Source of the DNA: Cyanophora paradoxa CCMP329
Taxonomy: Eukaryota > Plantae > Glaucophyta
Assembly: GCA_004431415.1 (NCBI GenBank)
Contig: QPMI01000661.1
Location: 1 to 33,116, forward strand
Direction: 5' to 3'
Length of the DNA stretch: 33,116 nucleotides
This document shows, piece after piece, positions 8,699 to 33,116 of the stretch. The notes under the pieces were generated by a model. The model was not told where the DNA came from. It saw nothing but the letters and a program-made list of their open reading frames with translations, and did not search any database. Made by a program: the position numbers and the translations under genes. Numbering within the stretch: position 1 is the first letter of the stretch; each line of letters opens with the position of its first letter.

Positions 8699-8982
8699 AC
8701 ACATAGTAAAATGCGGAGTTTTAACCCTCGGCTTAATCTTAATTGATTTTGTTGATATATCTCGTATATTCTATTTCAATCAATCGATAATCTGTGTATA
8801 TCTTATCGAATATTCATTTATTTCGATTATTTTGTATTCTTTTCGATATTTTATCGTAAATTTCTCTTATTTTCCGATTAGTCTTACTGAGTTAATCGAT
8901 AATCTGTATATATTTCCGAATAATATAACTGAATCTCAATTAGATCTTGCCTCTGGTTAAAACTCCGCATTTTACTATGTGT
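8699..8982. repeat. Perfect 28-bp inverted repeat flanking a 228-bp AT-rich spacer
   Basis: ACACATAGTAAAATGCGGAGTTTTAACC (8699-8726) and its exact reverse complement (8955-8982). Confidence 0.92.
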
Positions 8983-12591: not shown

Positions 12592-15500
12592 TTATACTTT
12601 GACATTTTTAATTTGGTCTATTTGATCCTGTTGATCTTTGCATTTTTGGGACAACTCCTTCACAGCTTCAATGAGAACTGGAATTAAACCTGTGTATTCA
12701 AGAGATAGGTAGCCATCGTCTTTTTTAACATTAACTACCTCTGGTATTACCTTTTCTACATCTTGCGCAATTAAACCTAATTTCGTTCCATCTTTTTCGC
12801 TTCCAATTCGTTTAAAACTCACTCCTTCTAATTTTTCGATTGCTGAAAGAGCGCCGGATATCTTTTTAATGTCGGTTTGTATCTTATGTCACTTCCTTGT
12901 GTTAAATAACCTCCAATCCACATCCATCCTCCATGATACATGTAACAAATATCAGTATCTTGTTCATTTCGGAATACAAGGGGAATATCTCCCCCTCCTT
13001 TCAAATATGTAGAAGTTTGGTTACCGAAATGGATACGATTATATCCATCACTGGAATTAAACCAAGTCCCCACAGTTCCTGTTAAGATATTTGGTTTACT
13101 ATAAACGTTATTCCAATGAATATAGCCGGTGTGACCACCATAGCTATGCCCAACCCATATTTTCATGTAACTTATACCCATAATGTGAACTCTTCCAATC
13201 TTTGGTCTAATTCGAATTGTGAGAAATCGATTACCAAGATGTATCGGAACATTATTTAAACCACTGTGGTTACCATCAGGCGATGTGGCGTATGGTTGAT
13301 AACTATTCACTGATGTAATAAAAACTTCATTCCCTTGTCTATTAACTCCCCAAATTTCAAAAACTCGTGAGCTTACCCAAGGTAAATAAGTTAAAAATGC
13401 TGTTCCTGTCAGGTATCCATCGGGTATATCGAAGTCCATCCAAGCGGTAGAAGTTTGGTCATCATATTGATCATTATAGACATATGAACCATAATTATAA
13501 TATGGATCCCATGATGTCCCCCAGTGATAGCTCCAACCCTGAGAACATCTATTAAACTCAATTGCTCCTACTGTTTTATCTGCTGTGTGAAACTTTGGGA
13601 CATCATTACCGTTTATTTGGAGTTTGGTAGTAGCATTAATAGTGGGTGCTGTAATAGTGTTATTCACCCAAAAGTTACCATTACCATATGATTTTAAGAT
13701 TGCTGCATCCGCTGAGTTTCTAAATTCGACAGATACACCATCGCCATTTTCATAGCCTCGAATATATGTAGTTTGACCATTTCCAAACCAAATTCGCTCG
13801 ACTGCATCTACTGATTTTAACCATGCATTTGTTGCCCATGTTGCGGTTTGTGGAAGGTCTGCGGCTGAGTAAAATGATGGTTTACTAAATATATTATCCC
13901 AAGAGATCATCCCAACCTCATTATCTGTTGCCCTCTGTCTACTCCACCCAAAAACACCTGTAAGATGGATTCTACCTTTTCGACCTTGAACATATATTTT
14001 TGTGTAAAACTCACAGTTAATAGAGATGAAAAGTATACTGGATTGTGTTCCATCATGTACTGATGCTTGAATACCTTGATAAACATTTAAACGCCGAAGG
14101 AAATGTTGATTACCATTAGCTGTTTGACCATAGATGTCAAAATATCTACAATTAGACCAACACATGGTTTGAATATAAAACGTTTTCATTCCTGTGGGGA
14201 CATTCCACCTCATCCAACAAGCGCTACAATCTTCATCATTTTGTGGTGTTGTATAACATCCTGTTTGTCCGGTTCTTGGTGTCCATCCTAAGTTCCAATT
14301 ATTTGCGCTTCTATCTGTCGAAACCACATCTAATTGGTCGAAATCGTAACCTTTTGGTATTGTGGTTCCACCAATTTGTAAAGTGGTAGCATTCACAGTT
14401 CCTGTTACAGTTCCACCTGTTAGAGGTAAATAATTCCCAAGAGCTGCTGTTAATTCGGTATCTGTTACAACATCTGTAAGAGCTAATTGTAATTCTGTAT
14501 TTGTTACATAATCTTTGTTTTCTAAATAATCATCTGTAACAACACCAGAGAGGGTCTCATTGTGTAAGTTTTTTGCTGCCATCCTCTGATTGACTTCTAA
14601 GGCTCCTCCTGCTAATGTTTTAATCCAGGACATTTCGCATTTCCCATAGTTATCTGATGGTTGTCCCACAAGTGGGACATAATTGAATTTGGATCGACTG
14701 AATATTATTTTAGGTCTGGAGCCATCAGTTGCACTGACATCTGTTACATTTACTTGCATAATGGCATCCTTATCATCATATGCTGCTGGATCAGATGGGA
14801 GAGGTGGTAATCCTGATGTCAATGTGATGTCCTCATTATAATAACTTGTTAAGAAGATGCCTGGTTTGGTATCAATCACCCCAACACCACCTGCTGAAAT
14901 CATTTGGATTCTTGTTGGTTGTTTGATGTATAATTCACCTTCCATTGTGGTCCCTGCATCAATGCCTTTTCGATTGACATAATAATCATTTAGTTGTAGC
15001 CTTTCAGGTATGGTATTACTCTGGTAGAGACTCACACCATTTGTAAAGTCTGTCAAAATATTGCCTGATGATGCAAAAGTTGGTTGTTCATCTATTTGAC
15101 TCCAAGGGTGTCTGTGGTTGCTATTGGTTATTGTTGAGTAATCATGAGTGTGTGAATCAGGTGGGAAGGTTAATGGAGGATTTGTGATATGCTCCCATAA
15201 ATGAGTATGGGCGAAATCTGTGATCTGATCTTTGGTGTGAGTATGGGCAAAATCTGTGATCTGATCTTTGGTGTGAGTATGGGCGAAATCTGTGATCTGA
15301 TCTTTGGTGTGAGTATGGCAAAATCTGTGATCTGATCTTTGGTGTGAGTATGGGCGAAATCTGTGATCTGATCTTTTGTGTGAGTATGGGCGAAATCTGT
15401 TATTTGGTCTTTTGTGTGAGTATGGGCGAAATCTGTTATTTGGTCTTTTGTGTGAGTATGGGCGAAATCTGTTATTTGGTCTTTTGTGTGAGTATGGGCA

Positions 15501-18500
15501 AAATCTGTAATCTGGGCTTTTGTGTGAGTGTGATTTTGAATCCAACCTTGAACCACATTAGAGGTTGGATGATGTGGTAAATTTGCATTGCTTGTAACTG
15601 TAAGGTAATCTATTACAGTATCAGGTGAGGTTATTTTTAATCCTCTGTAAATATTCAGAGTCTGGGTATGAGTGAATCCATATTTTTGTTGAATGTAATA
15701 CCTCACAGCATTCTTTTCAGAAGTTGTCAAAGCCCTATTGAAAACAATCAACTCGGAAATACCACCATTCACAATATTACCAAATCCGAAATGATTGACA
15801 GTATTATCTGGTAGATAATTTGTTCCTACAAGTGTTTCAATATCTACTCCATTTAACCCGACTGTGTAGCTGCTGGAAGTAATTGTTTGGTCAGTGTAAT
15901 ACCATGTATTTATTAAAGAAGGAACCGTAATAACTGGGCGGGTTTGGGATGCTCCATTAATAGTGAACTGGTTCATTCCAATAGCAGTAGAAGATGTTGC
16001 CCCATAATAACAATATCGTGATGGAAAGGCGCTTCTGTAAAGTCTCAAGTGAACTTGCATAGAAGAGGCAGTTGGATGATATTTTCCCACAAAGAAAAAT
16101 GTAAGCCCATTTGAGAAATCAATAGTTCTTGTAGCAGAGGTATATGCATAAAAAGTGCCTGTTGGGCTTGAAACACTAACTTGGTTGTTGATTTCGGGAT
16201 TGGTGTAATAGGAACTGGCTCCGGAGATAAACAAGTCTGGAACAACTGAATTCGGGACTCTGCTTACTATAGTTGTATACATTGCTGATTGACCTGGTAC
16301 TCCTGATGCCTTCCAAGCAAAAATGCAGTTCGAGATATTTGATGCTGGATCAAAGCTTGGTGGGACATCATACCATTCTTCGTAAACCTGATTCATGGTA
16401 TTGAAATTGCAAGAGCCAATTGTGAGGATTCCATTTACTTTTAGGTTGCTGGTCTCTATATTGCTGCTGTAAATATTACTATTAACTGTGAGGTTTCCTG
16501 TGATTGTCCCACCCACAAGAGGGAGATAATTGGATAGTTCTGCTGCAAGTTCAGCTTCTGTAATAAATTGATCAAGCATAGCAAGGGTTACAAAATTAAC
16601 AAGGATTACTGCAGTAAGGTAATCCTCTGTGACCACTCTCGAAATATTTTCGTTGTGTATGTTTTTTGCAGCCATCCTCTGATTGGCTTCCAGAACCCCA
16701 CCATAATCTGTTTTAATCCATGCAAGCTCTGCCCTCCCATAATTATCATTTGCAGTTCCCACTATGGGAATGTAGGAATATTTATCTCTGCTGAATACTA
16801 TCATTGGTCTTGAGCCATCTAAACTGCTTACATCTGCTACATGAACCTGTATAGCAGAGTTGAAATTTTGGTAGGTTGCTGGGTCTGTTGGGACTCTGAA
16901 TGTATCTGTGGGAATGTCAGCCTCCATGTAGCTTGACACAAAGATATTTGGTATGGTTGCTCCTGGTTCAGGTGGTGGATCATAAGAGCCTGGTAATGTC
17001 CTAATATGAAGTGGTCCTCTCATAGCTGAATTTGCAAGTGTCCCATTCACATGTACATAGTGTTCATTCAAAAAGATTCTTTCAGGGACATTACAAGTCT
17101 GATAAAGAGAAACCCCCAGGGTTGCCAAAGGCTCCACCTTTGCAAATTCTGGTTGGTCATTGATCTCATCCCAAGTATGTTCATGTTTGCTTGGTGGGAA
17201 CTCAGTTGGAATCCCATCAATTTCTCCCCAATCATGTCTGTGATCCTCTGGTGGATATTTCTCTGGTTTCCCTAAGATCTCATCCCAATCATGATTGTGA
17301 TCCTCTGGGGATACTTTGCAGGTTTATTATTAATTTGTTCATAATCAGGAAAGAACTCCCAGATCTCAGGTCGAAATCCATCTGGTAATAATTCCTCATG
17401 GGGTTCATAAGGTTGCTCATAATCAACAGCTGGTGGATCATGCCCATCTGGCAAATACTCCTCATCAGGTTCATAGTTCTGCTCATACTCAAACTCTTGG
17501 GGATCTAAGCCATCTGGTAGTATCTCCTCCTCATTGGGATCAAACTGATCATATTCATATTCTTGTGGGTCAAAACCATCTGGTAAATACTCTTCCTCAT
17601 CTGGAACGAATTGATATTCATCAAGCTCTAATATATCGACTTCAGGAGGTAAATACTGCTCATCTATTTGCTTTCTTGGTTCAATTATAGGTTTATTGCG
17701 AACTTGCTCCCAACTAACAATGTGTTGCCCAAAAGGAACTGTCTCATCTGCTGTGTACTCTCTGCCTGGTTGCTTTTTCGGTGTTAAATCCGGTGGATCC
17801 CATGGAAGAGGGAAGGGAACTGGGACAGGTCCATAATACTCAAAGATCTCTCTTATGGTCTTCTCACTTACAAGCTTCTCACCATTTGCATACACATTGC
17901 TGCCATGGATATTTCGCCATTGCCTGGTTCGAATTCCAAGGTCTTTCACATTGCTATACAAAGGCAAAAGGTGCCTATCCATTTCAACAAGATCAGGATG
18001 TAAATGGATTGCTACTGGCTGACTGGGGCTACTGTTGATTGTAATTGATGGCTTTTTTTGATGGACATCTTTTGGAGTAAAGAACCCAAAAGGCTCATTC
18101 CTTGCAAAGTCATATGTAATATCCTTGGGGTAGACATCATTTGTGTAGGAGACCTGATTTGTGTTGGCAATGGGACCCACTTGCAATACTTGGGGGACCT
18201 CAGCTTTTGCAGTGCTGCCCTCATTGTAAATTCGCAAACCTGTGTTCTGTTTGCCCTGCTCATCTTGAACATTGAAAATCAATCGACCACTATCAAACCT
18301 GGAAGGTATATCTGGATGAGTGCCACTGGTTTTGAGTTTCCTAGGTCTCCTTCTTGTTGCTTTGATCTCTGCCACTTGGTTTGCTTTCACATTACCCAAG
18401 CTAAAAGCAACACTAACTTCCTCCTTATCTGGATCGGTTTGATTCACAGATAAAGCATGCTCCCTTGATTGAGTCTTGGATGAATTATCGGAACTGTGGT

Positions 18501-18609
18501 CAATCGAAACTGAACCCTTTACTTTAATATTATCAAAGTTCACATGCTTGGTGCTGCTTGCATTATCATCTTGAATGGTTTCTAGATTGGGTGGGTAATT
18601 GAAGCTCAT
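12592..18609 (-). CDS. Giant modular tail-fibre-like protein (~2000 aa) with C-terminal peptidase S74 chaperone; about four frameshifts
   Basis: ORFs 17272-18609, 15170-17137, 12828-15545 and 12592-12822 are bridged by continuous motifs: PPxxHxHxWxxI repeats, YLPLxGGTxTG, a LamG-like block (GGISELIVFNRALTTSEKNAVRYY), HTHTKDQITDFA repeats and SDIRYK...GLIAQDVEKVIPEVV..LEYTGLIPVLIEAVKEL. Confidence 0.8.
15200..15532 (-). repeat. 36-bp coding tandem repeat, nine units (HTHTKDQITDFA)
   Basis: Unit GTGAGTATGGGCGAAATCTGTGATCTGATCTTTGGT on the + strand. One unit lacks a G at ~15318, producing the frameshift. Confidence 0.95.
17370..17660 (-). repeat. Acidic ~20-aa coding repeats (EExLPDGxDP)
   Basis: EEYLPDGFDP, EEILPDGLDP, EEYLPDGHDP, EELLPDGFRP. 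Confidence 0.8.
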
Positions 18610-18652
18610 GGCTTTTACTATATGGATTTATAAAATTCCTGATAAGTAAAAG

Positions 18653-20209
18653 ATGCCCTTGAAAATCTGCCTGTCTTTATCAGGGGGAGGTGCAAGGGGC
18701 ATTATCATAACCAGGCTGCTAAAAGAAATCGAAAATCGAACTGGCAGGAGAATAATCGATCTTGTGGATCTTGTGAGTGGAACTTCCACTGGTGGGATCA
18801 TTGCAATAGGTTTGAATATAAGGCATCCTGATAAACCAGGTGAACCTAAACTGACAGCAAACGATTTACACAATATTTACCTAACTCAACTGCCCTTGAT
18901 TTTCGCAAATCCTCGAAATATAATCGAAAATGCCCTTTTTAATACAAAGTATGATGTCGGACCCTTGGAGACTGCAATCAATTCAGTTACTGGTGAATCA
19001 CTAATACAGGATTCCCTTAAGGACATTGTGATCACATCCTTTGATACTCAGAATATGAAACCAATATTTATCACAAATGACAACAATTACAACTTTATGC
19101 CTTGTAAGATTGCTGCTAGGGCTACTTCTGCTGCTCCTACATATTTCTCTCCTGTAAGCATTGTTGATTTCAATAGGGGAGTATATGTCTGTCTCATTGA
19201 TGGTGCCATTTCGGGAAACAATAATCCCAGTGTGTGTGGTTACAGCCATGCAAAGAAGATTTACAGTGATGATGATGACATTATAGTAATAAGCATCTCT
19301 TGTGGTGAGGTGGACCCACATTTAGAGTCTGATTATGTGGGTTATGCTTATGAGACTGTAAACAGCTGGGGCATTCTCTCATGGATTGCCTCAACAGATG
19401 GAAGCCCATTGATTAACATGCTCATGGCTGCAAGTGAGCTTTCTGCCCTTGATAAAATGGAGGAGCTTTTACCCTACAACTATGATCAGGATTATGGGAG
19501 ATACTATAGGCTATCAGTCCCTCTTCCAAATCACATAGTAAGCTCCCTGGATGACACATCTAAAATCCCAGACATGCTTTCCTTCACTGAAACTTACATA
19601 GCAGCAAACAATGATATGATTAATAAGCTTTGCAGCCTACTAGTAGCAAACTATGAACTAAAGAACCCTTCAAAGGCTTACATTTCATCCACTCTCACTA
19701 CATCACCTCCTTTGGATGCCAATTGGTATCAGCTTGCAGATGATGCCTTTACTGCCTCATCCTCTGTGACAGGTAAAGAGCCTTTCATGGCAAGACCTTC
19801 AGCATTTGGCTGGGAAGCTGGAGCCTATGCTCCTGAACAGATATGGGAAACTCCCACTGAATACCTTCAAGTTGCTTTCCCATATACTTTTGAACTCTCC
19901 TCTGTGATTGCCTATGGATCAGGGGACACCAATGCTTTTATTAAGACTTTCAATGTGGCAACATCCACTGATGGGATCAACTGGTCTTTTATTCGATCAG
20001 ATGGGCAGAACAAAATGTATATGTGTGAGAACATTAACAATGCTCACAACTCTGGTGATGTGGCTCTATTGAGTGGATTTCCTCTCAGCATCAAGGATGC
20101 TTTTTACATAGGTTTTTCTCTCAGAATCAAGTATATTCGCATTTATCCCCTTGTGTATGTGAATGCTCCCACAATGAGAGTGGACTTTACAGGTGCCTTT
20201 ATTCGATAA
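18653..20209 (+). CDS. Patatin-like phospholipase fused to a C-terminal discoidin (F5/8 type C) domain
   Basis: LSLSGGGARG, GTSTGG (catalytic Ser), ATSAAPTYF, IDGA (catalytic Asp). C-term EYLQVAF...IKTFNVATSTDGINW...KYIRIYP...MRVDFTG. Intact ORF. Confidence 0.92.
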   Translation: MPLKICLSLSGGGARGIIITRLLKEIENRTGRRIIDLVDLVSGTSTGGIIAIGLNIRHPDKPGEPKLTANDLHNIYLTQLPLIFANPRNIIENALFNTKYDVGPLETAINSVTGESLIQDSLKDIVITSFDTQNMKPIFITNDNNYNFMPCKIAARATSAAPTYFSPVSIVDFNRGVYVCLIDGAISGNNNPSVCGYSHAKKIYSDDDDIIVISISCGEVDPHLESDYVGYAYETVNSWGILSWIASTDGSPLINMLMAASELSALDKMEELLPYNYDQDYGRYYRLSVPLPNHIVSSLDDTSKIPDMLSFTETYIAANNDMINKLCSLLVANYELKNPSKAYISSTLTTSPPLDANWYQLADDAFTASSSVTGKEPFMARPSAFGWEAGAYAPEQIWETPTEYLQVAFPYTFELSSVIAYGSGDTNAFIKTFNVATSTDGINWSFIRSDGQNKMYMCENINNAHNSGDVALLSGFPLSIKDAFYIGFSLRIKYIRIYPLVYVNAPTMRVDFTGAFIR

Positions 20210-21131
20210 ACTCCAACTGAAAAGAATTGTCGATTCCATTCATATCAATCAGTTCACCAAAGTAATCTTTAAACTCCACAGTGAGTTCCCTTATCACCAG
20301 GTTTCTGTCATTTATCTGAATGAATTCGGCATGCTCACCACTATGGTAAACATAGCCGCCTATATCTTTACTCAATTGCAGTCTAAGGATTGCCCCCTGG
20401 TTATGTGGTTGCGATTTCGGGATTATATTGTGTCTGCTGGCAAAGGGGGACAGCTCTTTAATATGCATGTACAGATACTGCTCAGCATTCATATCAGACA
20501 TCTTCCTGCTGTCAAAATAATATTGCAAGGGCTTTGAGGAGAGTCTGGGTCCTGAGAAGGTGATTCCCCATGCTGGGTGATCAGGTGTAATAGGTTTGCC
20601 ATCATACTTTAAAAGGTTCTCAGGTCGATAGGGAGATCCACCAGCAGGAGGAGTGCTATAATAACCATTGGTGTATTCAGTAGAACTCACACCCAAAAGC
20701 TTCCCTATTCTCTGGTTGCTTGCAATAAAACGAAACTCATGGTTACTGTAAAACTCCACTTTATAGGTAGTTGGGTTATAGAATATCTTGAACTCAAAAG
20801 CTACTGTTTTGCCTGCAATGGTTTGGAAGCTTGAATAGTTCAGCCCATAATTATAAGGGTGTGTTACCCCAAAATGACCCTGGTTAATGTAGCCACTGGG
20901 AAGGGGATACACTTTCTGTGTGATGATTTCATTGTATGAACCATCTTGGTAATTAAACTGAACTGTTAGATGATCAGTTCCCACACTGTTATAGATACTG
21001 TTTGGAATCTCTGCATAGAGAACCCTACATTCCCTTGGTCTCTCTACTGGAGTTGTGAGAGTGACCCTGTAAGAGTTTTCATTTTGTCCTTGGCTTCTAT
21101 CCCTGCTATCAATATTAACAAGCCGGTTCAT
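20199..21131 (-). CDS. Minor capsid protein (penton) 1
   Basis: LVNIDSRDR...YRVTL..RVLYAEIPNSIYN N-terminus. YLYMHIKEL and IRELTVEFKDYFGELIDMNGIDNSFQLEF C-terminus. Confidence 0.8.
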   Translation of the reverse strand: MNRLVNIDSRDRSQGQNENSYRVTLTTPVERPRECRVLYAEIPNSIYNSVGTDHLTVQFNYQDGSYNEIITQKVYPLPSGYINQGHFGVTHPYNYGLNYSSFQTIAGKTVAFEFKIFYNPTTYKVEFYSNHEFRFIASNQRIGKLLGVSSTEYTNGYYSTPPAGGSPYRPENLLKYDGKPITPDHPAWGITFSGPRLSSKPLQYYFDSRKMSDMNAEQYLYMHIKELSPFASRHNIIPKSQPHNQGAILRLQLSKDIGGYVYHSGEHAEFIQINDRNLVIRELTVEFKDYFGELIDMNGIDNSFQLEFIE

Positions 21132-21139
21132 TTTAATAT

Positions 21140-22169
21140 ATGAATATAGATAAAAGAAGAATGCCTGTGGATTACATCGAGGTTAGCTCATTTAATACAA
21201 TCTCTGGTGATGGTCCCACATCAAGCTTTGTGGCTAGACTCCCAAGTTCTTATGAGAATGTGAGGGCTGTGAGACTGGTATCAGCCGAATTTTATAACAG
21301 CATCCCTATGGTGAGTGGTGAAACCAAAGTTGGAGATGTGACAGTTGACAATGCATTTAGCATTTATTATTCTGAACAAACTCCTGGAGCTGGAAGCTCA
21401 GGAATTCCAACAGTTCGCCCAGCTGCTGACTATGAACAATGGAAACAATTCATTATAAGTCGAAACACCCCATCCAAAGCCACCAACAACTGGTGAATGT
21501 AATTAACTCTAAATTCGAAGGCAGAAATCCCCAACCATCCATTCGCTGCAAATGGGATGAATCACTGAAACGAATTATATTCCACTCAGCAGTACCATTT
21601 TACTTGGCTTTCTCAGTAGCTGTGAACCCAAGCCAACAAACAATCCAAAAGCTGTTGAGTTCAGCTAGACTGCTGGGTCTTGATCCTGGAAGATATGGTA
21701 ACTCCCCAATCCAATCACAGGTCTATGATGCTCTCACTGATGGAATCTTTACTGGTGGTCGAGTGAATGGCATTATATCTTCTTTTGAGCCTGAGAAGAC
21801 CAGGGACAGTGTTTTGTTTGTGAGAGTAAAGGAGCTGGGTGATCTGGTGCAATGTGGGGATGGTCTTCTGACTGGTTACTTCCATAAATAGTGGTCCCTG
21901 ACAAAGATTATGGTGAGCATGTAGTTTACAATTCGACAGAGGCTCATCCACTTTACAAATACTATAATAAGAAGGTTGGATTATCCACTTTCTCGGTTGA
22001 TATTGTAAATGCTATTAATGAACCAATTGATTTTGAGGGTCAACCTGTTCATCTGACCTTTGAAATTCGCTATGGTGATGAGCCAGCAGGAGACCCAGTT
22101 TATGAATACTTTAAGATGCGAATGTCACAGCTTCACCCTTCCTATCCAGTAATTACAAGCTTCGCATAA
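21140..22169 (+). CDS. Minor capsid protein (penton) 2, two frameshifts
   Basis: SFVARLPSSYENVRAVRLVSAEFYNSI, ARLLGL, VLFVRVKEL, LSTFSVDIVNAINEPIDFEGQPVHLTFEI. Same pattern as penton 1. Confidence 0.75.
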
Positions 22170-22222
22170 ATTAAGGATCATTGGTAGATTTTTTATGTTG
22201 CAGTATAATAAAAGAGATAATC

Positions 22223-23590
22223 ATGGATATCACTTCCACTCTTCAAAGACTTTCGCTGAAAGAAGCCCTAACAACCCCAGAGGAGGCGAAAGCCTTTTTC
22301 CTGGATAACTCCCTTATGCTTGGACTCGAATCCAAGTCTAAGCCAGTTCTAGTTGTTGTGAATCCCAGCAATACTTTTGAGAATAATGTTGGAAATCGCA
22401 TTTCCTTCAAGCTACCTCGCTACAATTTCTGTGGAAAACTCGAACTTGCTTTCGACCTACCAGAAATCACTTTTGCTGGTGAAGATCTAGTTCGCAATGG
22501 ATACACTCGCCCAGTTGGTGCTTTAGTTCAGCGACTTGAAATTACCTATGGATCTTACACCTACCACATCCCTTCTGATTTCCTTGCTCATTTCCCCCTG
22601 GTCTATTATTCGGAGGATCAACTAGCTAAAAAGAAACGCTCAATGGGCATGGTTCATGGTATCCCTGCTCATGGAACCAACCGACTTGGTGGCTCATTCT
22701 TTGTTGAAATCCCAGTGCCTTGGCTAAATCACTATCTTCCCCTTGGTGCTTTATCTGGTGAAATGGTTGTTACTGTTTGGTTTAAGGATGCTGGAAAGGG
22801 TTATGTTGAAACTTCCTATGGTGGTCGCTCTCTCCCTGTTGTTGGTGGGACAGCTGCTGATAAGACAGAAGATGATGGTCTTGGTGATACTGCTAATGCT
22901 ACACTTGCCCATGTTGGTCAAAACATCACCACTTTCAGTCTTGGTGCAACAACCCCTGCTATTTCAATTACTTCTCCTCGCCTTTACATGCATGCTATTA
23001 ATGTTTCTGATGAGCTTTTCGCTACTGTAATTGAAAAAGTAAAGACTACTGGCATGGCTATTCCCTCCCTTGATATTGGATTTGTAGATGCCATTGCTTT
23101 CCCTGCCAAGGGCAATGCCCAGCCCAATCGAATTAACCTCTCTCAAATCTCAGGTCTTGTCTATGCTCTGCTTGTTTCAGTTCGTGATTATGAGACTGTT
23201 GACAAATCCAATGGCTCCCACAGTGTTCTTAAGACCTATGCCAACTCCAAAGAGATAACATTCACAACTGAAATAAATGGACAGCGACTTTTTGCCACTG
23301 AGCCAATTTCTCTACTCAAAGGAGCTGAGCTAATTGCTGATGCCTTCAAATGCTCTAACATGGATAAGGTTGCAGATAAATATGTCCTTTCAGGACTCCC
23401 ATTCTGCCTTGATGGAGAAAAGGCAATTCGAAATATTGCTCAAAGTGGATTTGTAGACCTGACTAATTCCTCATCTTCATTCCTCACACTCTACATGCCC
23501 ACAGATAAGACAATCAATGTTCAAGTTCGCGCTTTAATGCATAGTTTCCTCATTATAGACGGTTCAGGTGTTCGTAGAATCAATTTATAG
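22223..23590 (+). CDS. Major capsid protein (double jelly-roll)
   Basis: Intact 455-aa beta-rich ORF between penton and ATPase. GNRISFKLPR, LVQRLEITYG, VEIPVPW..YLPLGAL are typical DJR strand patterns. Confidence 0.85.
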   Translation: MDITSTLQRLSLKEALTTPEEAKAFFLDNSLMLGLESKSKPVLVVVNPSNTFENNVGNRISFKLPRYNFCGKLELAFDLPEITFAGEDLVRNGYTRPVGALVQRLEITYGSYTYHIPSDFLAHFPLVYYSEDQLAKKKRSMGMVHGIPAHGTNRLGGSFFVEIPVPWLNHYLPLGALSGEMVVTVWFKDAGKGYVETSYGGRSLPVVGGTAADKTEDDGLGDTANATLAHVGQNITTFSLGATTPAISITSPRLYMHAINVSDELFATVIEKVKTTGMAIPSLDIGFVDAIAFPAKGNAQPNRINLSQISGLVYALLVSVRDYETVDKSNGSHSVLKTYANSKEITFTTEINGQRLFATEPISLLKGAELIADAFKCSNMDKVADKYVLSGLPFCLDGEKAIRNIAQSGFVDLTNSSSSFLTLYMPTDKTINVQVRALMHSFLIIDGSGVRRINL

Positions 23591-23649
23591 ACCATATTCA
23601 GTCTCCCTGCATTATTTTTATCTGTCTTTATTTAGGAAGATCTACAACA

Positions 23650-24344
23650 ATGCAAGATTTAGAAGAGTTTAATGTTTCTGAAATGATAAAAGGTGTTTTC
23701 AGAGCCATTTTTATAGGCAAAAGTTGTACGGAAAAAGCGAATGTGTAAAGTATTGGTTAAAGCAATTACATGATGCCAAAGTTATTGATGTTGTCCTAGT
23801 TGTGAGTGGGACCAGCTTTAATCATTTCTGGAGAGAGGTTGCAACAGTAGAACTTGGTAAATGGGATGCTGGTTACATTTCAAAGCTTTTGGATGAAAGG
23901 CAGGAGAAAATCGAAAAAGGTGAACCTGTGAACCACATGTGTGTTGTTTTAGATGATTTAATTGATAATGAGATAATTGATTTAACCAGAGACAAGGTGG
24001 TGTCATCTCTGTACAGTAGGGGCAGACACTCGAAAATATCCATTATCTGCATTACACAGAAACTCAGAAAAGTCTCTTCCACTATTCGAGTTAATTCTGA
24101 TTATGCTGTTTTCCTGAGTGCTGCTAATCGCAAAGAACTTGAAGCCATAGAGGAAGAATACAATATAATGCGAAACAAGGAGGACTTTTACAAAATGTTT
24201 GAAGAATATGTCCACTCCTATCAGTATATCGTTTGGTCCTCTGCTGGCTACTCAGTTAAATACTTTGTAGATAAAGCTGAGCTTGTCAAAGACTTCCCAT
24301 TTCCTCGCTTCCACAGAAAGCCAAAAAGAAAGAAGATGAACTGA
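23650..24344 (+). CDS. A32/FtsK-like DNA packaging ATPase, frameshift in Walker A
   Basis: RAIFIGKSCT/GKS, CVVLDD, LYSRGRHSKISIICITQ, IRVNSDY. Confidence 0.9.
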
Positions 24345-24457
24345 AACCACCAGAGAAAGAGGAAGCCCCAAAGAAGTGAAAAGCCAAGTCCATAGCAATA
24401 AATTGATGCGATATAAACGCGGTTTATAAAATTATCTCTCATTCTAATAAAGATACA

Positions 24458-25190
24458 ATGCCTCCCAAACGAAAGATAGGGATCCCAGCTGGGGCTGTTG
24501 GCTATTCAGGTGGTGGAAACAATGGATCTATTAACACTGAACCAATGAAATTCAATGGTATGAACGAAATCAAACCCTCACAACCCCAAGAAGACCCCCT
24601 TAATGCTGCCTATGAGGAATCAGTCGATGACAAAGCCCCACAAAGTTCAACTGCTGACCAACTGAACATTTCCCTGAGACAGCAAAGATGAAGTCTGTTG
24701 CTGAGGGTGCCAGGCGAATTATTGGGGCTGCTGATGACAAAGGTTTAGGCTTGCAAGATCTTTCACTGGCTCGCAAAGGTGAGGGTCTTAGTAAGGAATC
24801 AGACAAGGTAATTCAGTCTATGGCTGGTGAAGTCACATACAAGACTGCTCCCACTCAAAATATTCATCGAATTCCCAAGGCTCAATGGATGAGATGACTG
24901 CTAAACTCAAAGATCTGGAAGCCAAATCAAGTGCCTTGGAGCAGTATGTTACTGAGAAGAAAGAGAGAGCCAAGCTAAAGGAGATGCTTCGAAAGGAAGT
25001 TTATAAAATGGGAATCACTGGTGTCCCAGATAAACAGTTTATTGCTAAGAAAGAGAACCAAATCGATGAGCAGGCAGTAGATGAAATGAAAACAAAAACC
25101 CAAAAGGGAACCATTGAACCTGGTGCCACCAAAGCTGAAGTAGAAAAGGGAGTTGCCCCAACAGTATATAAAAGACGAGTTTGGCTTTAA
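24458..25190 (+). CDS. Hypothetical protein (three overlapping ORFs, probably one frameshifted gene; possible core protein)
   Basis: MPPKRK start, overlapping consecutive ORFs, K/E-rich coiled-coil C-terminus. Confidence 0.45.
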
Positions 25191-25211
25191 TTTCTCTGTT
25201 TTATTAGAGAT

Positions 25212-25484
25212 ATGGACATAATACGAAAGTTCTTCGAGATGTTCAGTCTGCATGTGGTGAGCAATTGCCACAGTGGATGTTGTGAGACAACAGTGGAGTT
25301 TGAGATGTCAGATAATGAGGATAATGCCTCAGAAGCAAGAGAGAGAAGGAGATCAACAGTTTCTGTGGAGTCAATGCCAGCAGACCCCACAGAGTATACA
25401 TATGAGCAACAGGAGTATCCAAGGAGAAGTTCTTTGCCAGGCGAAAACGTTTTCTCAGCAAATATTAATGGAGGATACAATTAG
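25212..25484 (+). CDS. Hypothetical small protein with CxSxCC motif
   Basis: 90-aa ATG ORF co-oriented with the structural block. Confidence 0.45.
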   Translation: MDIIRKFFEMFSLHVVSNCHSGCCETTVEFEMSDNEDNASEARERRRSTVSVESMPADPTEYTYEQQEYPRRSSLPGENVFSANINGGYN

Positions 25485-25799
25485 TTTGATCGAGTTTACT
25501 AGTGATGAGCCTTTAACTGAGGGTGCTATTAGACACATTCTAGCAAAGCAGAAACGATATAGAGAGGACCCAGCATATAGAGAGTATAAGAAACAACAAG
25601 CCCTGGCATCCTATTATCGCAGAAAAGCCCAAAAAGAGGAGCAGAGACCCAGAGGAGACCGATTAAATATTATTTGCCTACTGATAGTAGCAATGGACCC
25701 CCAGGTCTATAAGATAATTGAGAAAAAGCGGTCTCAGTATGCTACTGAGGCAGCTATAAAAATATATACAAAGGAATTGGCTTTATACTTGCAATCAAG

Positions 25800-26021
25800 T
25801 CACAGATAAGTTTTGTAAATATGCTTTTGTTGTTTTTTGTTTGCATTCTCAGACACTGAAACAGTAATGTGAATGTTTACTGATCTATTTCTCTTTGGTT
25901 TAGCTGCATACATATTGTAACCTATCAATCTCTGTGACATTTCGATATATGCCCCTATATCTCCATGCTTTATGCATTTATCTAACTCAGTCATGGTCAT
26001 CTCATCAAGAGTCTTTGCCAT
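25800..26021 (-). CDS. Hypothetical small protein
   Basis: MAKTLDEM... ORF preceded by the shared YTTAARG..TATA motif. Confidence 0.5.
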   Translation of the reverse strand: MAKTLDEMTMTELDKCIKHGDIGAYIEMSQRLIGYNMYAAKPKRNRSVNIHITVSVSENANKKQQKHIYKTYL

Positions 26022-26088
26022 TTTGTCTTCACTATACACAATCAAGTAAGCCTTAAGTATTCTTGTCAAATTTTGGTCATTTTCGATA

Positions 26089-26209
26089 GGTGTGACAGGT
26101 GTGACAGGTGTGACAGGTCTATCCCATCGATTTTGAAAATCAACTTTTCACCAGGGCTTTCCTTGGGATGGACCTGTCACACCTGTCACACAAACCATTT
26201 TCAGTAAGG
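26089..26209. repeat. Iteron hairpin, copy 2 (putative replication origin)
   Basis: (GGTGTGACA)x3-GGTCTATCCC-39 bp-GGGATGGACC-TGTCACACC-TGTCACAC-AAACCATTTTCAGTAAGG. Lies ~40-60 bp past the helicase stop codon. Confidence 0.85.
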
Positions 26210-26249
26210 CTATAAAATATATGTAAATCTCAATCATTAATCGTTTTCT

Positions 26250-28567
26250 TTAATATTCGGCATCATCTTCATTGTCTTCCTGAACCCTTGTTATCTTTCG
26301 AATCCCAATATATCCTCTGGCAAGAATACCATTAACTCGTTTTCTTTCTGATTTAACATTGAAGATCTCCCTTACTCTTTTCATAACAGATACACATTCA
26401 ACTTTATCATCAACACTTTTGTATGATTTGTAAATGATATCACTGGAAACAAAGTCGTTAGCATTATGTGTAACCTCGAAATTATCTCGAAGCCATTCAC
26501 CAATCTTATCATTTTCAGCTATAAAGTTAATTCCCTGTTCAATAATCGATTGAGGGGACTTCTTAAGATCTCTTCAACCTCTTTGTTCTTCCACATATCC
26601 AGTAATATCTTCATGTGAGCCATCTTATACTCATCATCATTGTGTAGAAGTGTGAACAGAGTTGGGTCAGCTTTCTTTTGACCAGCTTCTGGCTTCTCTC
26701 TGAATATATTATTGAATCTCTGATAGGAAAGTCTTCTTTGAATTGCAAAGTCTGGTTTATTTATAGTCAAATTGTCATTAGTTGTAATGTAGACCTGAAA
26801 CATTGGGGTAAGGATAACTGGGTCTTTGAACAAGGCTCTCACAGTCATTTCATTTCCACCTGTGACCTCCTTAATCTTGGAGATCTGCAGTTTATCACCA
26901 TCTTCAGCCTCATTACTGAATACAAGTCGCTTTCCAAGGAGTTTGGCAAGTTCAGGAGTAGCCTCTGATGAGTTCTTTTTAGGCTTAGTCCAATAGGATA
27001 TTTCGAGAGGGCTGTAATAGCGACCAGATATCTGTTTGCAGTATTCCTGAACAAGTGATTTACCATTAGCACCAGCACCAGTCCACATATAGAACTTCTG
27101 GGATTTAGTTGATCCACTAAGGCAATTGCAATGGATGCCAGAAGATACTTTCGCTCTGCTGGATCATCCACAATCTCTTTATAAATCTGATTGAGATGCT
27201 CTATTTTCTTGGGTCTACATTCTCAGTATAATCATAACCCACAGTCTTACTCACCATATCTTCCAGTTTACCCTTTCTGAAAGTCATAGTGGTCAGATCA
27301 AATACACCATTTTCGAATCCAATCACATATGGAACTGTGTCAATCTTCTCAAGAATTCATCATCATTCAGCAGTGGGACAAGTCAGTCAGAAGGGATTTG
27401 CGAAATCCTGATTGTTTAAGATTTTGGCAATGGTCATCAATGTTTTGGATCTTTCTTCGAAAGCTGCTTTGTTTCCTCATCCTTTAAAGCTCTTTGACTA
27501 TAATGCACAGCCCTCCAAGGTATTGGGGGACAACAAGACGGCTTATATCTAGGTAAATCTTTAGGTTTGTGTCATCAAGCTCCCAAATCCCAGTATCAGT
27601 ATTGAGTTTGAACCATGACTTTTTGGAGTATCTCCAAGTGTGTTTAAGAACCTCTTTGCATACTAAACTCACATCATAATGAGCGCCACCAGAACCAGCG
27701 GATTTATCTATAAGATTAAAGATATCAGATTGCATTCCAATGCAGATGAATCGTTTTTTGCAATTTCCACTGTAGCTTGACACAATGTATTTGTTATCAT
27801 CTCCTTTAGCTTTCATAACAAACCAGTTATTCGATTCATGTGAACCATTGCAGCATGGGCAATTGAGTCCCTTGTTAGCAGCATCAAAGTTAAAGCCAAG
27901 TTCAGTTTTAGAGATTATATTGGATGCATAAATCCCATATCCACCAGCTCTTTGATAATATTGTTTTCCAGTTCATCATATGAGGTAGCATTAGCAGTAT
28001 ACTCACTCTTATAGATGTAATTATCTATAATCCACTTTTTGAAGTCATCAGTAGGCTCATTGAAATCACAGGTATCATCCCATGGGGAGATCACCCAAGC
28101 CTTGTTGACACTGGGACAAACATTAATTAATCCAGAAGTTCCAGTTCCAGTGATTGTTTTCAGGTCAACCTTTTCAAAGCCTTTAAAGCCTGGAGCCTTA
28201 TCGGTGATTTTGAGTTTAGTGAACTCCTCAGGTCGTTTAAAGTAGACATGATAGCCTTTTTTAGTTTTTGCCATGGGCTGATTGGCATCAAAGTCATCAG
28301 GAAACATATCCGGAATTTGTCAAAGTCCTCCTCATCATCAAAGTCAATAACCATCATGTTGTCTGAGAGCAGAATGCCCCAAGATACATACTGATTAGTT
28401 GCCAGCGCTTCCTCATACTTTTCCCAGGACCAAGCACCTCCCTTATGCTTGAAAACAGGGTCTTTGCTGTCAGGTTTCACTGGGATAATCATGTTTTTGG
28501 CTAGATCCTCATCAGATCTGAGCCAGTTAGCGAGCGATTTGAGCGATTTAGTCTGTTTGGCGTTCAT
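26250..28567 (-). CDS. Bifunctional primase-polymerase (PrimPol/AEP) fused to D5-like SF3 helicase, several frameshifts
   Basis: IIPVKPDSKDP, WGILL..MVIDFDD, TKKGYHVYF (PrimPol); IGFENGVFDL (D5_N); GAGANGKS, LVFSNEAE, IKEVTGG..VRALF, ITTN, AIQRRL (SF3); winged-helix-like C-term (IGEWLRDNF...RGYIGIR). Confidence 0.9.
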
Positions 28568-28574
28568 TTTCAGC

Positions 28575-28635
28575 GATTGGGGTCCCTTTTATATATATAG
28601 AAGATTTTTCTTTAAGTAGTTTTGGGTCCCCAATC
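28575..28635 (-). promoter_or_regulatory. Putative promoter of the primase-helicase, bracketed by a 12-bp inverted repeat
   Basis: Minus strand CTTAAAG-N10-TATATATA. GATTGGGGTCCC (28575-28586) and GGGTCCCCAATC (28624-28635) are inverted with one mismatch. Confidence 0.55.
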
Positions 28636-28777
28636 ATTTTTTGTTGGAAATCGAGAAAGTATCCCTACGAAATTTATCCACATGATATATCGAGTGGTTT
28701 AGATACAAAAAGGATGAATGGGTATTTCAGCGAATAAACAGCATATCCCAGCCTAGTAATATGCTGGGAAAAATAAT

Positions 28778-29032
28778 TTAGACATGTTTCAATTTTCTCC
28801 CTCTATTTGAGTAAGGGACATCATACAAATACTTGACAAAGCAGACTGCATTGGCTGCATACTTTCGCTGACATGAACTTGCTATTTTCATTGCTCTATA
28901 GGTATCATCGGTTTGATATAGATCTCTAAGCTGTGTGGCTATTTTTTCGTTAAACTTTTTGATTTGAGCCTTACCTTTTTCAGTTTGCTGGTACCTCTTC
29001 ATAGCTCTCTTCTGGGCTTCACTGAGTGGCAT
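28778..29032 (-). CDS. Small basic putative DNA-binding protein
   Basis: MPLSEAQKRAMKRYQQTEKGK pattern, common in small viral DNA-binding proteins. Upstream TTTAAAG..TATATATA. Confidence 0.6.
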   Translation of the reverse strand: MPLSEAQKRAMKRYQQTEKGKAQIKKFNEKIATQLRDLYQTDDTYRAMKIASSCQRKYAANAVCFVKYLYDVPYSNRGRKLKHV

Positions 29033-29074
29033 TTTTCCTCTGTCTCTCTTAATATATATAGAGAATTCTTTAAA

Positions 29075-29713
29075 TCATTTTTTGTTTTGTGGTTTCTGGA
29101 TATTTCTTTGAACAATATGTAAGCAACATTTCTTCAAACTCCTCAGGGCTTGCATGTTGTTTGCAATCACATGTTGCTGATGGCACAGGAAAGACTTTGG
29201 GCAGATTGGCTTTTTACAATCACATTTGTACATGTGGTATTCATTGTGTTTGCGATCACTGAACATTTTGATGACATCATTCGCAAATTTGTTTTTAAAC
29301 TTTCATATTTTTTCCAATGGAGCCTATCACACAACGGAATATAATTATAGAACTGATTTGCATCCGTCAAATAATGACAAAGACCAAGATCATAGAAATC
29401 ATCTCGAAACCAGACTTGCAGAGAGTTGTTCAAGAGGTTTTGTGTGTGAATCCTTGCAATGTATGAAAGAAATGAATATTCACACCTGCAAAGAGGACAT
29501 GATATGCAATAGTTGCTCTCTGCAAGCATCATTTCTGGGTATCCTTCAAACTGTCTGAAAGCTTTTTGTGCGCAGCAGTAGAACGGGATACTCATTAGAG
29601 TCATGAACCTTATATATATACTTTATAATGCAGGCTTCACAAAAGAAATGCTCACAAGCAAGCTCAATGATTGTATTCCTTTGAATAGTTTTGAAACAGA
29701 TTGGGCAGGACAT
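29075..29713 (-). CDS. RING-HC (C3HC4) finger protein, frameshifted
   Basis: Manual translation MSCPICFKTIQRNTIIELACEHFFCEACIIKY, continuing in another frame to CISCPLCR. Cys-rich C-terminus; 3' end uncertain. Confidence 0.8.
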
Positions 29714-29787
29714 CTTTGATATATCTATATAGAAGATATTTCTTTAAATCATTTTTTTGTTGCTCAGCCAAATGTAATGTTTCAACA

Positions 29788-30077
29788 TCACATGCATTGT
29801 AGTCCAGAATGTGAATAAGGTGAACTCTGATACTGTAATGTGTTTCTACAGAATGGGCATTTTGTATTCCGACTATTCCTCTTGCTGTTTCATGCATCTA
29901 TACAGACTGTCTTGAAGCATTGATCACATACAAACTGATCATAGCTAGTCTCATCACATTTACATAAACTGCATAGAATGCGTTTATATTCTGAGTTTTC
30001 ACAGGTTTCATTTCTTTCTTTAATACTTCTCATGAATGGCTGAAATAGCTAAGCGTTCTTTGACCGTCCGGATTCAT
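29788..30077 (-). CDS. Second RING-like (all-Cys) finger protein, frameshifted
   Basis: Manual translation ILCSLCKCDETSYDQFVCDQCFKTVCI.C....KCPFCRN across shifted frames. Confidence 0.65.
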
Positions 30078-30187
30078 TCTTGCTATTTGGCTTCTATATA
30101 TATACAATATAAAATTCCTTAAGTATTTTTCGCGTTCGGAATATCCCCATTTAAAACCTCCCTTTTATTAGGAACAAGTTAGGAACA

Positions 30188-33116
30188 ATGCCCCGAATTA
30201 GCAACAGACTCATTAGAGAGAAGAAATGGGAACTCATGGGATTACTGGGAACACTGTATGCAGCCCATGAAATCACAGAGGCTGAATATGACCGGGAAAT
30301 CGGATTTATTTCAAGGGGCAGACCCACTTTAGCAAAATTAACCAGAAAAGCCAATAACCTCTATGACAAAGTTGAGACTCTTGATGAACTCGATCGCCTG
30401 AGGCAAATAGAACCAGAGGAGAAGATGGAACAGCCATGAATGAATTATATCGCTGGCTCACATACAGAGCCAGAAGGGAAGTTGTGGTAGATGTGATTGA
30501 ATATTTAGATAGAATTGCAACCTCTCTACCAAAACGTTTAAGAGATAGTCTGGATCAATTCAGGGCAATCAAAGTTCGCTTGTCGTTTATCTGCAAGTTC
30601 GTAAAAGTCAGCAATCCACAGGTTTGGATATCGAAATACATTTACAGCGATTATTTTGTATTAACCAAATCGAGAAATATTCGAACTGAGCTGAATAAAG
30701 CAGCCCAAATGTGTCAGGAACAGATGAATGTTGTGATAGCTATCGATTGAGAGAATCGAAATGCTAAGAGTTGCTATTATGAGTTATGCCCCAACTGGTG
30801 GCTGCTATGTTAAAACACCAGAATCAATTGCAGCTAAGAAAGCCACAGTGAATATTCGAAATATTGATGATTCTTGCTTTGAAAATGCCATTTTGGCATG
30901 GATCCATAGGAAAGATGTAATTCCCACAAGAGAAGAGTGAGCTTACACAATATCGCAAATGGAAATACTCACCAACCACATACAATCCTTTGGCTCTCAA
31001 TTTTCGACAATATCCCATTCCCTGTTCCTGTGGATGCTGAAATCATTGATAAATTCGAATCTCAAAATGCAGGCATCAGCATAAACATATTTGGAATGGA
31101 TGAGGTTATATATCCCCTGCATCAATCCAGCAACCCAGGCAGAGAAAGCAAAAGATTAATCTAATGCTCATTCATGATGATGAAGGGAATGGTCACTATA
31201 TTACTATCATGTCCCTTTCAAGACTTCTCAGAGTTGCCCTTGATAAAACCAAGGATCAAAAGTTACACTACTGTGATACATGCTTATCTCGATTCAGGTC
31301 TGAGGCTAAACTCACTGCTCATGTGGACTCAAACAGATGCATTGATTGGAGACTCTCAAAGGGAATCACCCTAACCTGGACACCACATAGAGTTTGGACT
31401 GAAAAACCTCAGGAAAACTGTCTGGCTTCCTGTTTGTGGTTACTGCAAGATTGAACATAGAAGCATCCCCATTGATGCATCGAAATCCAAGAGAAAGTCT
31501 CAGCAGTCAACTAGAATAGTCACTGGGGCAGATGTTCAGGAGTTTCGATTTGAGGGTCAGGATCCAATGGGAGGTCTGTTTGAATGCTTGGAGTCCAAAG
31601 CAAGAGAGCTAATCGATTTCCTGTTTCACCAATATTCCATGAATGAACTCACAGATGAGCAAAAGGCTTTTACAGGCTACAAACACTGTTACCTTTGCAG
31701 TGAGGTTCACCAAGGAAAACTTCAAATGCAGGGATCATGATCACCACACAGGTCATTACATTGCACCTGCATGCAGAAACTGCAATCTCCATAGGAGAAT
31801 CTCAAAGCAAACAAAGTAGCAGTGGTTGTTGACCAAATGGATGACTGTGGACATTCATTTTCAGAAAAATAGCAGGCATGGGTGATAAAAAGCGAATCGA
31901 AATCCTTTCGAAAAACTTTGATCAATACCTTTCATTGCAATGGGTTCTTTACAAGTTCATTGATGCAAGTAATTTTATGGATTTGGGCTGCTGATGTAGA
32001 TGAGTTAATGACAAATTCCAGGCTTTAGAAGGCTTTCACACTCAGTATATGGACTTGACCCAGTTCATTATGTATCTGCACCTGGGTTATCTTGGGATGC
32101 TATGCTTAGGACCACCAAGGCAAAAATAGAGCTTATAAGTGATGTAGAGCAATACGAATTTGTTGAGAGGGGAATCAGGGGTGGCTTTGCAACAATGCCT
32201 TGTAGGTATGCTGAGGCTGATGGTGAGAACTCCCATATAATGCTGTTTGATGCTAACAACTTGTATGGCTACTGTTTGAGTCAGCCAATCCCAGTTGGTG
32301 ATTTTAGATGGGAGACCGAATTCAACCCACAAGATAACAGATCCAGTTTCCTGGAAGTTGATCTGGATTACCCAATTAGGCTATATCTAGACCACAGTGA
32401 TTTCCCCCTAATTATTAACAAGAAAATAGTAGAATATGCAGAATTATCACAATATCAAAAGAGCCTATTAGATCTCTCAGGAGAAGAGCTTGATAAAACC
32501 CCTAAGCTAACTGCAACCTTTGGTTCTGTGACCAACTATGTGATTTCTGAGCCTCTTCTACAGTATCTGTTGGACAAAGGGTGAAACTAAAGAAGGTTCA
32601 CAGGGTCCTATCATTTACTGTGGCTCCTGTAATGAAACCCTACATTGAGCTGAATACTGAGATGAGAAGGAAAGCAGTGAATAAATTCGAGGCTGATTTC
32701 TATAAGCTCATGAATAACTCAATCTATGGGAAATGCATTGAATCTGCAGAGGTAGATCTGTGGTTAAGATTGCAAACAGTGAGAAACTGTTTATGAAATA
32801 TGCAGCCTCCCATTGGTGAAATCAACAAGTCCCATAAACGAAAAAGCAGTTGCCTTTGAGTTTTACACAAAGCATGTGAAGCTAGATAAGCCAGTTGCTA
32901 TTGGGGCTTATGTTTTGGATGCAGCCAAACTGCATAACTACAAGTTCTTCTATGATACTGTAAGGTCCCAATGGACAAAAGCAAAGTTACTATTCCATGA
33001 TACTGACTCCTTTTGTCTATATATCGAATCTAAGACCCTACAAAAAGATATAGAGAATATATCTTATGCTTGGACCTAGGGGATCTAACAGAATGACCCC
33101 AGGTAAATACAAAAAT
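30188..33116 (+). CDS. polB: Protein-primed family B DNA polymerase (Polinton/adintovirus-type architecture), frameshifted, runs off window
   Basis: GGCYVKTPESIAAKKATVNIRNIDDSCF, GHYITI..CDTC..H (C2H2), RDHDHHTG..AC..CNL (EndoVII-like), GLDPVHYVSAPGLSWDAM, GIRGG, FDANNLYG, KLMNNSIYGK, HDTDS. The N-terminal 30188-30750 ORFs are tentatively included. Confidence 0.9.

Follow-up and report, generated by a model that had tools for sequence, protein, structure and literature searches.

Positions 1 to 33,116 of contig QPMI01000661.1 (forward strand) from the glaucophyte Cyanophora paradoxa CCMP329 (assembly GCA_004431415.1), a stretch referred to here as the window, carry at their end a gene for a family B, protein-primed DNA polymerase (pPolB) of a virus-like element. 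The gene starts at position 30188 of the plus strand (MPRISN...) and continues beyond position 33116, the window end. We found that it carries no 3′-5′ exonuclease motif, that it keeps the polymerase motifs A, B and C, and that its exonuclease losses are shared by an intact relative, P0003. We consider it probable that the exonuclease was lost in an ancestor and the loss was inherited, that the exonuclease domain was kept as a scaffold, that the polymerase stayed under purifying selection, and that the copy in the window died later. We infer that the enzyme of this lineage polymerises but does not proofread. The window copy itself, judged by its sequence, is a dead copy, unable to encode an enzyme as assembled.

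A preliminary description of the window, made from its letters, had proposed that this pPolB lost its proofreading domain. Indeed, none of the 3′-5′ exonuclease motifs (DxE, Nx2-3(F/Y)D and Yx3D) was found in the window copy. The YCKIE reported at the Exo I position is present at 31441-31455, where the relatives carry YADFE and P0003 reads IYAQIK, and the catalytic Asp is replaced. A loose end at 31440 indicates that, immediately upstream of the Exo I codons, the length varies in some other copies, so YCKIE as read may be peculiar to the window copy. At the Exo II position, the reported VVVDQMDDCGH was located within VAVVVDQMDDCGH (31816-31854), and no HNxxxYD is present; the relatives have (I/V)FHNxxxYDxH, and P0003 has IIVHDLATYGHG, with VHDLATYGHG at the motif itself. 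Both the Asn and the Asp of Exo II are replaced in the window copy, the catalytic Asp being Gly in the window copy and in P0003. The interval between KFIDASNFM and ADVDEL...YGLDPVHY, said to hold only a few codons, came to about 20 aligned positions as counted on the alignment rows. Across this deletion junction (31953-32047, plus strand), KFIDASNFMDL is followed directly by the Exo III helix remnant AADVDELM..., and the deletion site lies at about 31984-31993. The three pieces around it, K-FIDASNFM-DL (31953-31985, frame 0, with KFIDASNFM itself at 31953-31979), AADVDELM (31987-32010, frame 1) and YGLDPVHY (32048-32071, frame 2, the start of the palm), are in different frames; the stretch of about 95 residues that holds KG(V/I)YPY and the Exo III Tyr is missing. 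The PolB fragment of another element of the window (element A; fragment at 8137-8775, minus strand) was confirmed to carry KGIYPY and an Exo III of the form Y-M-M-T-D, with about 115 residues by count in the matching interval.

The polymerase part of the window copy is kept as the preliminary description had stated, in differing frames. Motif A (FDANNLYG, 32246-32269, Dx2SLYP-like) retains the invariant D693 and Y698, motif B (KLMNNSIYGK, 32704-32733, Kx3NSxYG) retains K848, N852 and G856, and motif C (HDTDSF, 32996-33013, DTDS) retains D947, T948 and D949, so that all invariant residues of these motifs are in place. Across the gene, 19 of the 20 family-invariant residues are kept, and the sole change is the Exo II His (H552 to Asp). 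About 200 residues of the exonuclease remnant remain together with an HNH insert; the domain is not physically absent as most of it is in mavirus-type pPolB.

P0003, an intact open reading frame (ORF) of 1083 residues on one 6.3-kb Logan contig, is the best relative of the window gene. With the 179-residue open piece at 32045-32584 as the query, 720 longer proteins were matched at E <= 1e-3 among 1224 candidates; P0003 showed 52% identity, and the next matches 42-43%. The preliminary description had asked whether relatives share the deletion, and we found that P0003 is colinear with the window copy across the junction to within 1-2 residues. The interval from FIDSxxF to YxLDP is 24 residues in P0003, against 115-160 residues in 24 of the 26 aligned relatives; the 26th of them, P0142, could not be aligned across this stretch. 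The D and E of Exo I stand at the catalytic columns in all 24 alignable relatives, and the HNxxxYD of Exo II is present in nearly all. In a palm-only tree, which leaves out the columns of the exonuclease trait, the window copy and P0003 were sisters with a Shimodaira-Hasegawa-like approximate likelihood ratio test (SH-aLRT) support of 100 and a stem length of 0.95. This sisterhood, together with the shared losses, argues that the losses came first and the window copy died afterwards. Inheritance is thus the likely source of this coordinated loss of Exo I to III, which is neither a read error nor a private decay of the window copy.

Purifying selection, which the preliminary description had named as a further check, was detected among the copies of the gene. 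Within the 40 substitutions listed of 76 sites, 38 fall in aligned codons; 27 of these 38 were synonymous, where the codons and the observed transition/transversion mix would predict 9.9 (binomial p 9e-9), and 28 were at codon position 3. Similarly, four of the five listed sites at 31754-31976, in the HNH insert and the exonuclease remnant, were synonymous. The synonymous bias and the kept residues together suggest that the family diverged as a coding gene already without its exonuclease motifs. Between the window copy and P0003, identity was 35% in the N-terminus (residues 1-200), 54.5% in the OTU-like and zinc-finger region (201-395), 39% in the exonuclease remnant (396-623) and 54% in the palm (624-967). 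By these measures, the exonuclease remnant is under weaker constraint, yet not free of constraint.

Structure modelling, also called for in the preliminary description, was performed on P0003. The AlphaFold2 model, built from a 72-row alignment, had a mean pLDDT (predicted score of the local distance difference test) of 89.4 and a predicted TM score (pTM) of 0.84, and the 10-residue blocks over residues 401-630 had pLDDT values of 84-97. Foldseek gave chains of phi29 DNA polymerase as the best matches (E 1e-17, TM on target 0.66-0.68). With VIA-align, residues 420-1062 of the model were superposed on phi29 residues 5-575 (Z 19.1, root mean square deviation 3.0-3.5 A, 482-483 residues aligned); the phi29-like fold, with its exonuclease, palm, TPR1, TPR2, fingers and thumb regions, was recognised on the P0003 model only, by whole-span alignment rather than per subdomain. 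An exonuclease-like fold is therefore predicted to persist in P0003. The missing segment would normally connect the strand that ends in FID to the helix on which Exo III usually sits. Laboratory mutants of the phi29 exonuclease site retain polymerase activity, and mutants of phi29 Exo III affect strand displacement. As a separate observation, residues 87-216 of the model aligned to the little finger of Y-family polymerases (Dpo4 241-341 and Pol eta 120-508) with Z 9-9.7 over about 100-108 residues; such Z values are common by chance, and the region may be a terminal-protein-like D1 domain.

We further studied how rare the loss is across the family. When P0003 was run with HMMER against 1.84 billion representative proteins, 18,960 matches reached E <= 1e-3; P0003 scored 2503 bits to itself and the next match 456 bits (36-37% identity). 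The counts that follow refer to 151 proteins, namely the best 150 of the 18,960 matches and P0010. The 720 longer proteins matched by the 179-residue query are mostly about 1200-1350 residues long, many with PF02945 (Endonuclease VII) and some with PF03175, and named members of the family include proteins from Paramuricea clavata (coral), Cydia fagiglandana (moth), Leptopilina heterotoma (wasp), Planococcus citri (mealybug) and Aphis glycines (aphid). In the ESM Atlas, only general Endonuclease_7/DNA_pol_B_2 clusters were found, and those nearest to P0003 were mostly eukaryotic, with arthropods as the commonest phylum. All five exonuclease catalytic residues are kept in 144 of the 151 proteins; the Exo I columns read D in 146 and E in 146. 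The interval from FIDS to YGLDP is 102 to 160-169 residues in 147 proteins and short in four, P0003 (24), P0220 (36), P0205 (42) and P0184 (57), all four of them intact ORFs of 1051-1083 residues with motifs A, B and C in place. P0205 and P0220 lack the Exo I DxE, and P0220 also lacks the Exo II Asp. In P0184 (XP_065182354.1, an uncharacterized protein of the sponge Sycon ciliatum), Exo II is kept, but neither the Exo I segment nor the Exo III Tyr is present; by its motifs, it is a separate, partial exonuclease loss. A Cys in place of the HNH His was considered as a marker of the exonuclease-less proteins and ruled out, as Cys is present in 43 of the 151 family members.

In the palm-only tree, P0205 and P0220 were sisters on another long stem (SH-aLRT 100, length 0.94). 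When the window copy, P0003, P0205 and P0220 were forced into one group, the tree had a log-likelihood 68 units above that of the free quick-search tree, with a p value of 0.994 in the approximately unbiased test (p-AU), and long-branch attraction between the two long stems is a possible source of this support. We put the number of independent exonuclease losses at one to three, because a single origin is not rejected by these trees and attraction between the long stems is possible. A metagenome scan with P0003 gave 10 loci, none with the short form; the only two that reach across both anchors, L001 and L007, have the canonical form, with 120-121 residues in the interval and KGIYPY in L001 and KGVYFY in L007. 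A scan of viral contigs with P0003 gave one locus of 30% identity, on the same contig as L008, which carries KGVYPY, and scans of viral contigs with P0220 and with P0205 gave no locus.

The state of the window copy was then weighed. No single open frame crosses the gene; the listed ORFs are pieces of 40-160 residues in all three frames. Searched with tblastn, P0003 matched the window in two chains of pieces (E 1e-93 and 4e-48), and the pieces of the polymerase gene fell in frames 1, 2, 3, 2, 1, 3 and 2. A frameshift-aware alignment covered P0003 residues 1-967 with a score of 1882 and 436 of 942 positions identical (46%). Over 30188-33061, this alignment required 16 frameshifts, a lower bound as the listed variants suggest a few extra local frame changes, and one in-frame stop codon (31372-31374). 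Programmed frameshifting and another genetic code were set aside on the frame pattern (16 shifts in both directions and one stop). The preliminary description had overlooked these breaks. Its conclusion of an evolved exonuclease-minus polymerase rather than a read error stands at the level of the lineage, where P0003 shares the loss, contigs bridge the junction and a synonymous bias is seen, and falls for the window copy itself, which is broken and encodes no working enzyme.

The breaks might suggest plain pseudogene decay, in which the Exo motifs and the 285-bp segment were lost only after the copy had died. Six of the 16 frameshifts and the stop do sit in the exonuclease remnant, whose identity to P0003 (39%) is below that of the palm (54%). 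However, the intact P0003 shares the Exo I and Exo II losses and the colinear deletion, which largely refutes decay, contigs of other runs bridge the same junction, and the synonymous bias among the copies extends to the remnant; we regard decay as highly improbable. Assembly or read error is the other simple explanation, with the deletion or the frameshifts as artefacts of an unpolished long-read repeat assembly. About half of the sampled words of the window were contained in 14 runs of one organism. On 30188-33116, the contigs of three DNA runs numbered 259-525 per run, with summed depths in the thousands and listed pieces of 91-248 bases. The region 13117-33116 is wholly high-copy (2338 and 3465 contigs, depths in the thousands, no listed piece longer than 831 bases) except for the bin 29125-29791, with depths of 115 and 338; the bins of the gene are about 30-60 times deeper than this one, a crude ratio that is uncalibrated as a copy number. 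The deletion site was bridged by a 118-base contig of run X3 (31940-32053) and a 337-base contig of run X16 (31913-32245). Copies holding the missing ~285 bp, which the preliminary description had named as a refutation of its reading, were sought without success: no joint appeared at the deletion site, and none of the loose ends listed, beyond which there are a further 42 and 303, points to an inserted segment.

As to the frameshifts, complementary length differences occur in other copies at nine of the 16 break sites. In favour of error, there are sites where all short-read contigs of some runs depart from the window, and the length differences listed are mostly a single base missing from the window beside an identical one, with several 4-to-5 homopolymers of this kind elsewhere in the window; replication slippage and long-read assembly error would both give such single-base differences. 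Against error, at each of the 12 indel sites listed, one or more of three other DNA runs had short-read contigs in the window state, at substantial depth, and five ORFs of 445-905 residues are open in the equally repeated stretch at 12.8-23.6 kb. Given these shared indel states and open neighbouring ORFs, we read the frame breaks as real variants, shared by part of the copies. As the deletion is also common to P0003, we consider error improbable as a whole. It is also unlikely that the whole lineage is no longer a polymerase and has taken another role, in priming or as a terminal protein, through an OTU or HNH activity or by host domestication, with an inert palm. Inactivated pPolB derivatives are described in related elements in the available excerpts of PMC5499653 and PMC11161782, and the gene here retains its vOTU-like Cys and the DHDH of its HNH insert. 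Yet motifs A, B and C with the catalytic Asp, along with 19 of the 20 invariant residues, persist even in the window copy, these motifs are also kept in P0003, P0205 and P0220, and the palm (54% identity) was counted as the most conserved part.

Several points weigh against an inherited loss with a kept scaffold. The window copy, with its 16 frameshifts and stop, cannot encode the enzyme, and no uninterrupted copy from the same organism was seen among the DNA-run contigs, which reach at most 831 bases. P0003 is a lone sequence on a single 6.3-kb contig, and the protein database search gave no relative closer to the window gene. A search at near lengths (98-314 residues) gave 145 proteins at E <= 1e-20, none of them a window-family copy, with a best identity of 43% over most of the query and a few rows of 52-55% over about half of it. 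The substitutions counted for selection are those among copies, not between lineages. The exonuclease remnant is the second least conserved part of the gene, after the N-terminus, and the alignment behind the AlphaFold model consists mostly of canonical relatives, favouring the persistence of an exonuclease fold.

Under the inherited loss that we favour, 3′-5′ exonuclease catalysis would have disappeared in an ancestor shared by the window family and P0003, and possibly by P0205 and P0220 as well. The exonuclease domain would have been retained as a structural scaffold, bearing the HNH insert and packing against the palm. The lineage would have kept replicating its own element with a low-fidelity, protein-primed polymerase under purifying selection, and the element would tolerate, or gain from, a higher error rate. 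The window copy would have died later, its broken states being common to other copies of the repeat. A wider version, which we offer tentatively, is that an old HNH-bearing, eukaryote-associated clade (the window family, P0003, P0205 and P0220/P0291) lost proofreading once, kept the pseudo-enzyme scaffold, used an error-prone replicase under purifying selection and expanded in at least one host, to some 50-100 times the depth seen in the least-covered bin. If true, it would add a third way in which Preplasmiviricota polymerases lost their exonuclease, in this case with no helicase fused to them.

Exonuclease loss as such is already in print. In the available text of PMC11161782, PMC13215967 and PMC12721341, it is known in mavirus pPolB and in the pPolB-S1H fusions of polinton-like viruses (PLV) and transpovirons, where it is tied to helicase gain, and lower fidelity has been suggested for mavirus (PMC11161782, PMC13215967). 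According to the excerpts of these sources, the mavirus-type pPolB (TP-vOTU-PALM, truncated and palm-retaining) and pPolB-S1H likewise lost exonuclease function and kept the palm, with most or all of the exonuclease domain gone and a helicase gained. In the window lineage, by contrast, the exonuclease fold is kept, as the P0003 model predicts, together with the HNH insert; the losses are confined to the catalytic residues and the Exo III segment, and no helicase is fused. The canonical zinc-finger/HNH pPolBs of animal genomes (P0010; P0109 of Cydia fagiglandana; P0124 of Planococcus citri), at 28-37% identity, have the same order of N-terminal region, OTU-like CFxW, C2H2 finger, Exo I, HNH, Exo II, FIDS, YGLDP and motifs A-C. 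They keep DxE, HNxxxYD, KGVYPY and YxxxD, whereas all of these are missing from the window copy and P0003, whose interval is 20-24 residues long.

The phi29 DNA polymerase (PDB 2PYJ, 1XHX and 2EX3), which shares its overall fold with the P0003 model over 482-483 of about 570 residues, differs in having an active exonuclease with Exo I-III and in lacking the terminal-protein/OTU fusion, the zinc finger and the HNH insert. The polinton pPolB1 and pPolB2 are likewise protein-primed PolBs of integrated virus-like elements; in the available part of a survey of them (Jeong et al. 2023; PMC10748475), Exo I-III are conserved throughout the set and the pPolB2 of nematodes and oomycetes is said to contain an HNH insert. 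A keyword literature search, which does not prove absence, found no paper on an exonuclease-inactivated zinc-finger/HNH pPolB. To our knowledge, proofreading is conserved in almost all family-B polymerases. If the lineage keeps the fold without the chemistry under purifying selection, it would offer a natural exonuclease-minus, strand-displacing, protein-primed polymerase, a test of the proposed idea of exonuclease-helicase compensation, and a way to study how the mutation rate affects the spread of virus-like elements through genomes. In practice, annotation should treat the window copy as dead and not as a gene.

The gene and its relatives are colinear from the N-terminal region through the zinc finger, the HNH insert and the exonuclease remnant to the palm. 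The N-terminal region (30188-30750, plus strand as for all features of this gene) corresponds to P0003 residues 1-200, with 65 of 184 aligned positions identical, and likely represents the terminal-protein-like D1 domain described in the available part of PMC11161782. It is followed at 30761-31364 by a region with 103 of 189 positions identical to P0003 and five frameshifts, likely a vOTU-like domain (a name borrowed from the same partial source) with its Cys at 30875 in DDSCFENAIL, and then the C2H2 zinc finger HYCDTC...AHVDSNRC (about 31263-31340), which keeps the family-invariant H384 at 31320. The TP-vOTU-EXO-PALM order described for polinton-type pPolBs in excerpts of PMC11161782 is matched by the window gene, with the C2H2 finger and the HNH insert between Exo I and Exo II as the extras here. 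The HNH (Endonuclease VII-like) insert, FKCRDHDHHTGHYIAPACRNCNL (31706-31807), follows the pattern CxxC ... DH(C/D)HxTG ... CN, read as CYLCS ... KCRDHDHHTGHYIAPACRNCNL at 31680-31807. In P0003, PF02945 was found at residues 496-537 with 24.0 bits (cut-off 23.6) and PF03175 with 63.8 bits (cut-off 25.8), showing the family similarity; the window piece 32581-32796 alone scored 19.7 bits to PF03175, below the cut-off. Runs X15 and X16, RNA only by guess, gave contigs over parts of 31240-33116 of up to 1305 bases at depths of 3-53, with several gaps each; none of the listed runs sharing the stretch is a confirmed RNA run, and X15 and X16 give nothing firm on expression.

An Rfam scan of the window gave no family reaching its gathering score, and Pfam scans of the window ORFs gave no integrase, capsid or protease family beside the polymerase gene, which runs off the window. 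The low-depth bin 29125-29791 separates this gene from the upstream repeat and holds a RING-finger ORF (29546-29713, minus strand). Beyond it lies a DUF5906 gene (26253-28588, minus strand; domain at 26522-27163, E 4e-9), which is split into at least five frame pieces and probably encodes a primase-helicase. This broken gene upstream of the polymerase bears on the idea that exonuclease loss goes with helicase gain, and the low-depth bin lies between the two. At 21137-22166 (plus strand) and at 28627, successive ORFs are linked across single-base length differences in homopolymers of 4 bases. Compared with the window, most or all short-read contigs carry one extra base there, and these sites may be assembly errors.

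The element A PolB (6586-8775, minus strand), the comparator of the preliminary description, aligned only to P0010 residues 661-1274, with Exo I, the HNH insert and Exo II missing; it is 5′-truncated and broken into five frame pieces (-3, -1, -3, -2, -3). A32-like packaging ATPase matches were found at 4021-4368 and 23682-24341 (plus strand), one of them a fragment only. Other virus-like genes encode an HNH_3-AP2 endonuclease (4708-5253, minus strand), a fragment of AdoMet decarboxylase (9830-10132, minus strand) and a patatin phospholipase with an F5/8 type C domain (18650-20206, plus strand). Two long fibre-like ORFs of 905 and 655 residues (12595-17323, minus strand) share the tandem peptide repeat HTHTKDQITDFA and its variants, and are followed by a Peptidase_S74 intramolecular-chaperone domain (12595-12888, E 1e-12). 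Finally, the first 1000 positions of the window have a G+C fraction of 0.60, against 0.32-0.47 elsewhere in the window, and may be flanking host DNA or a different element.

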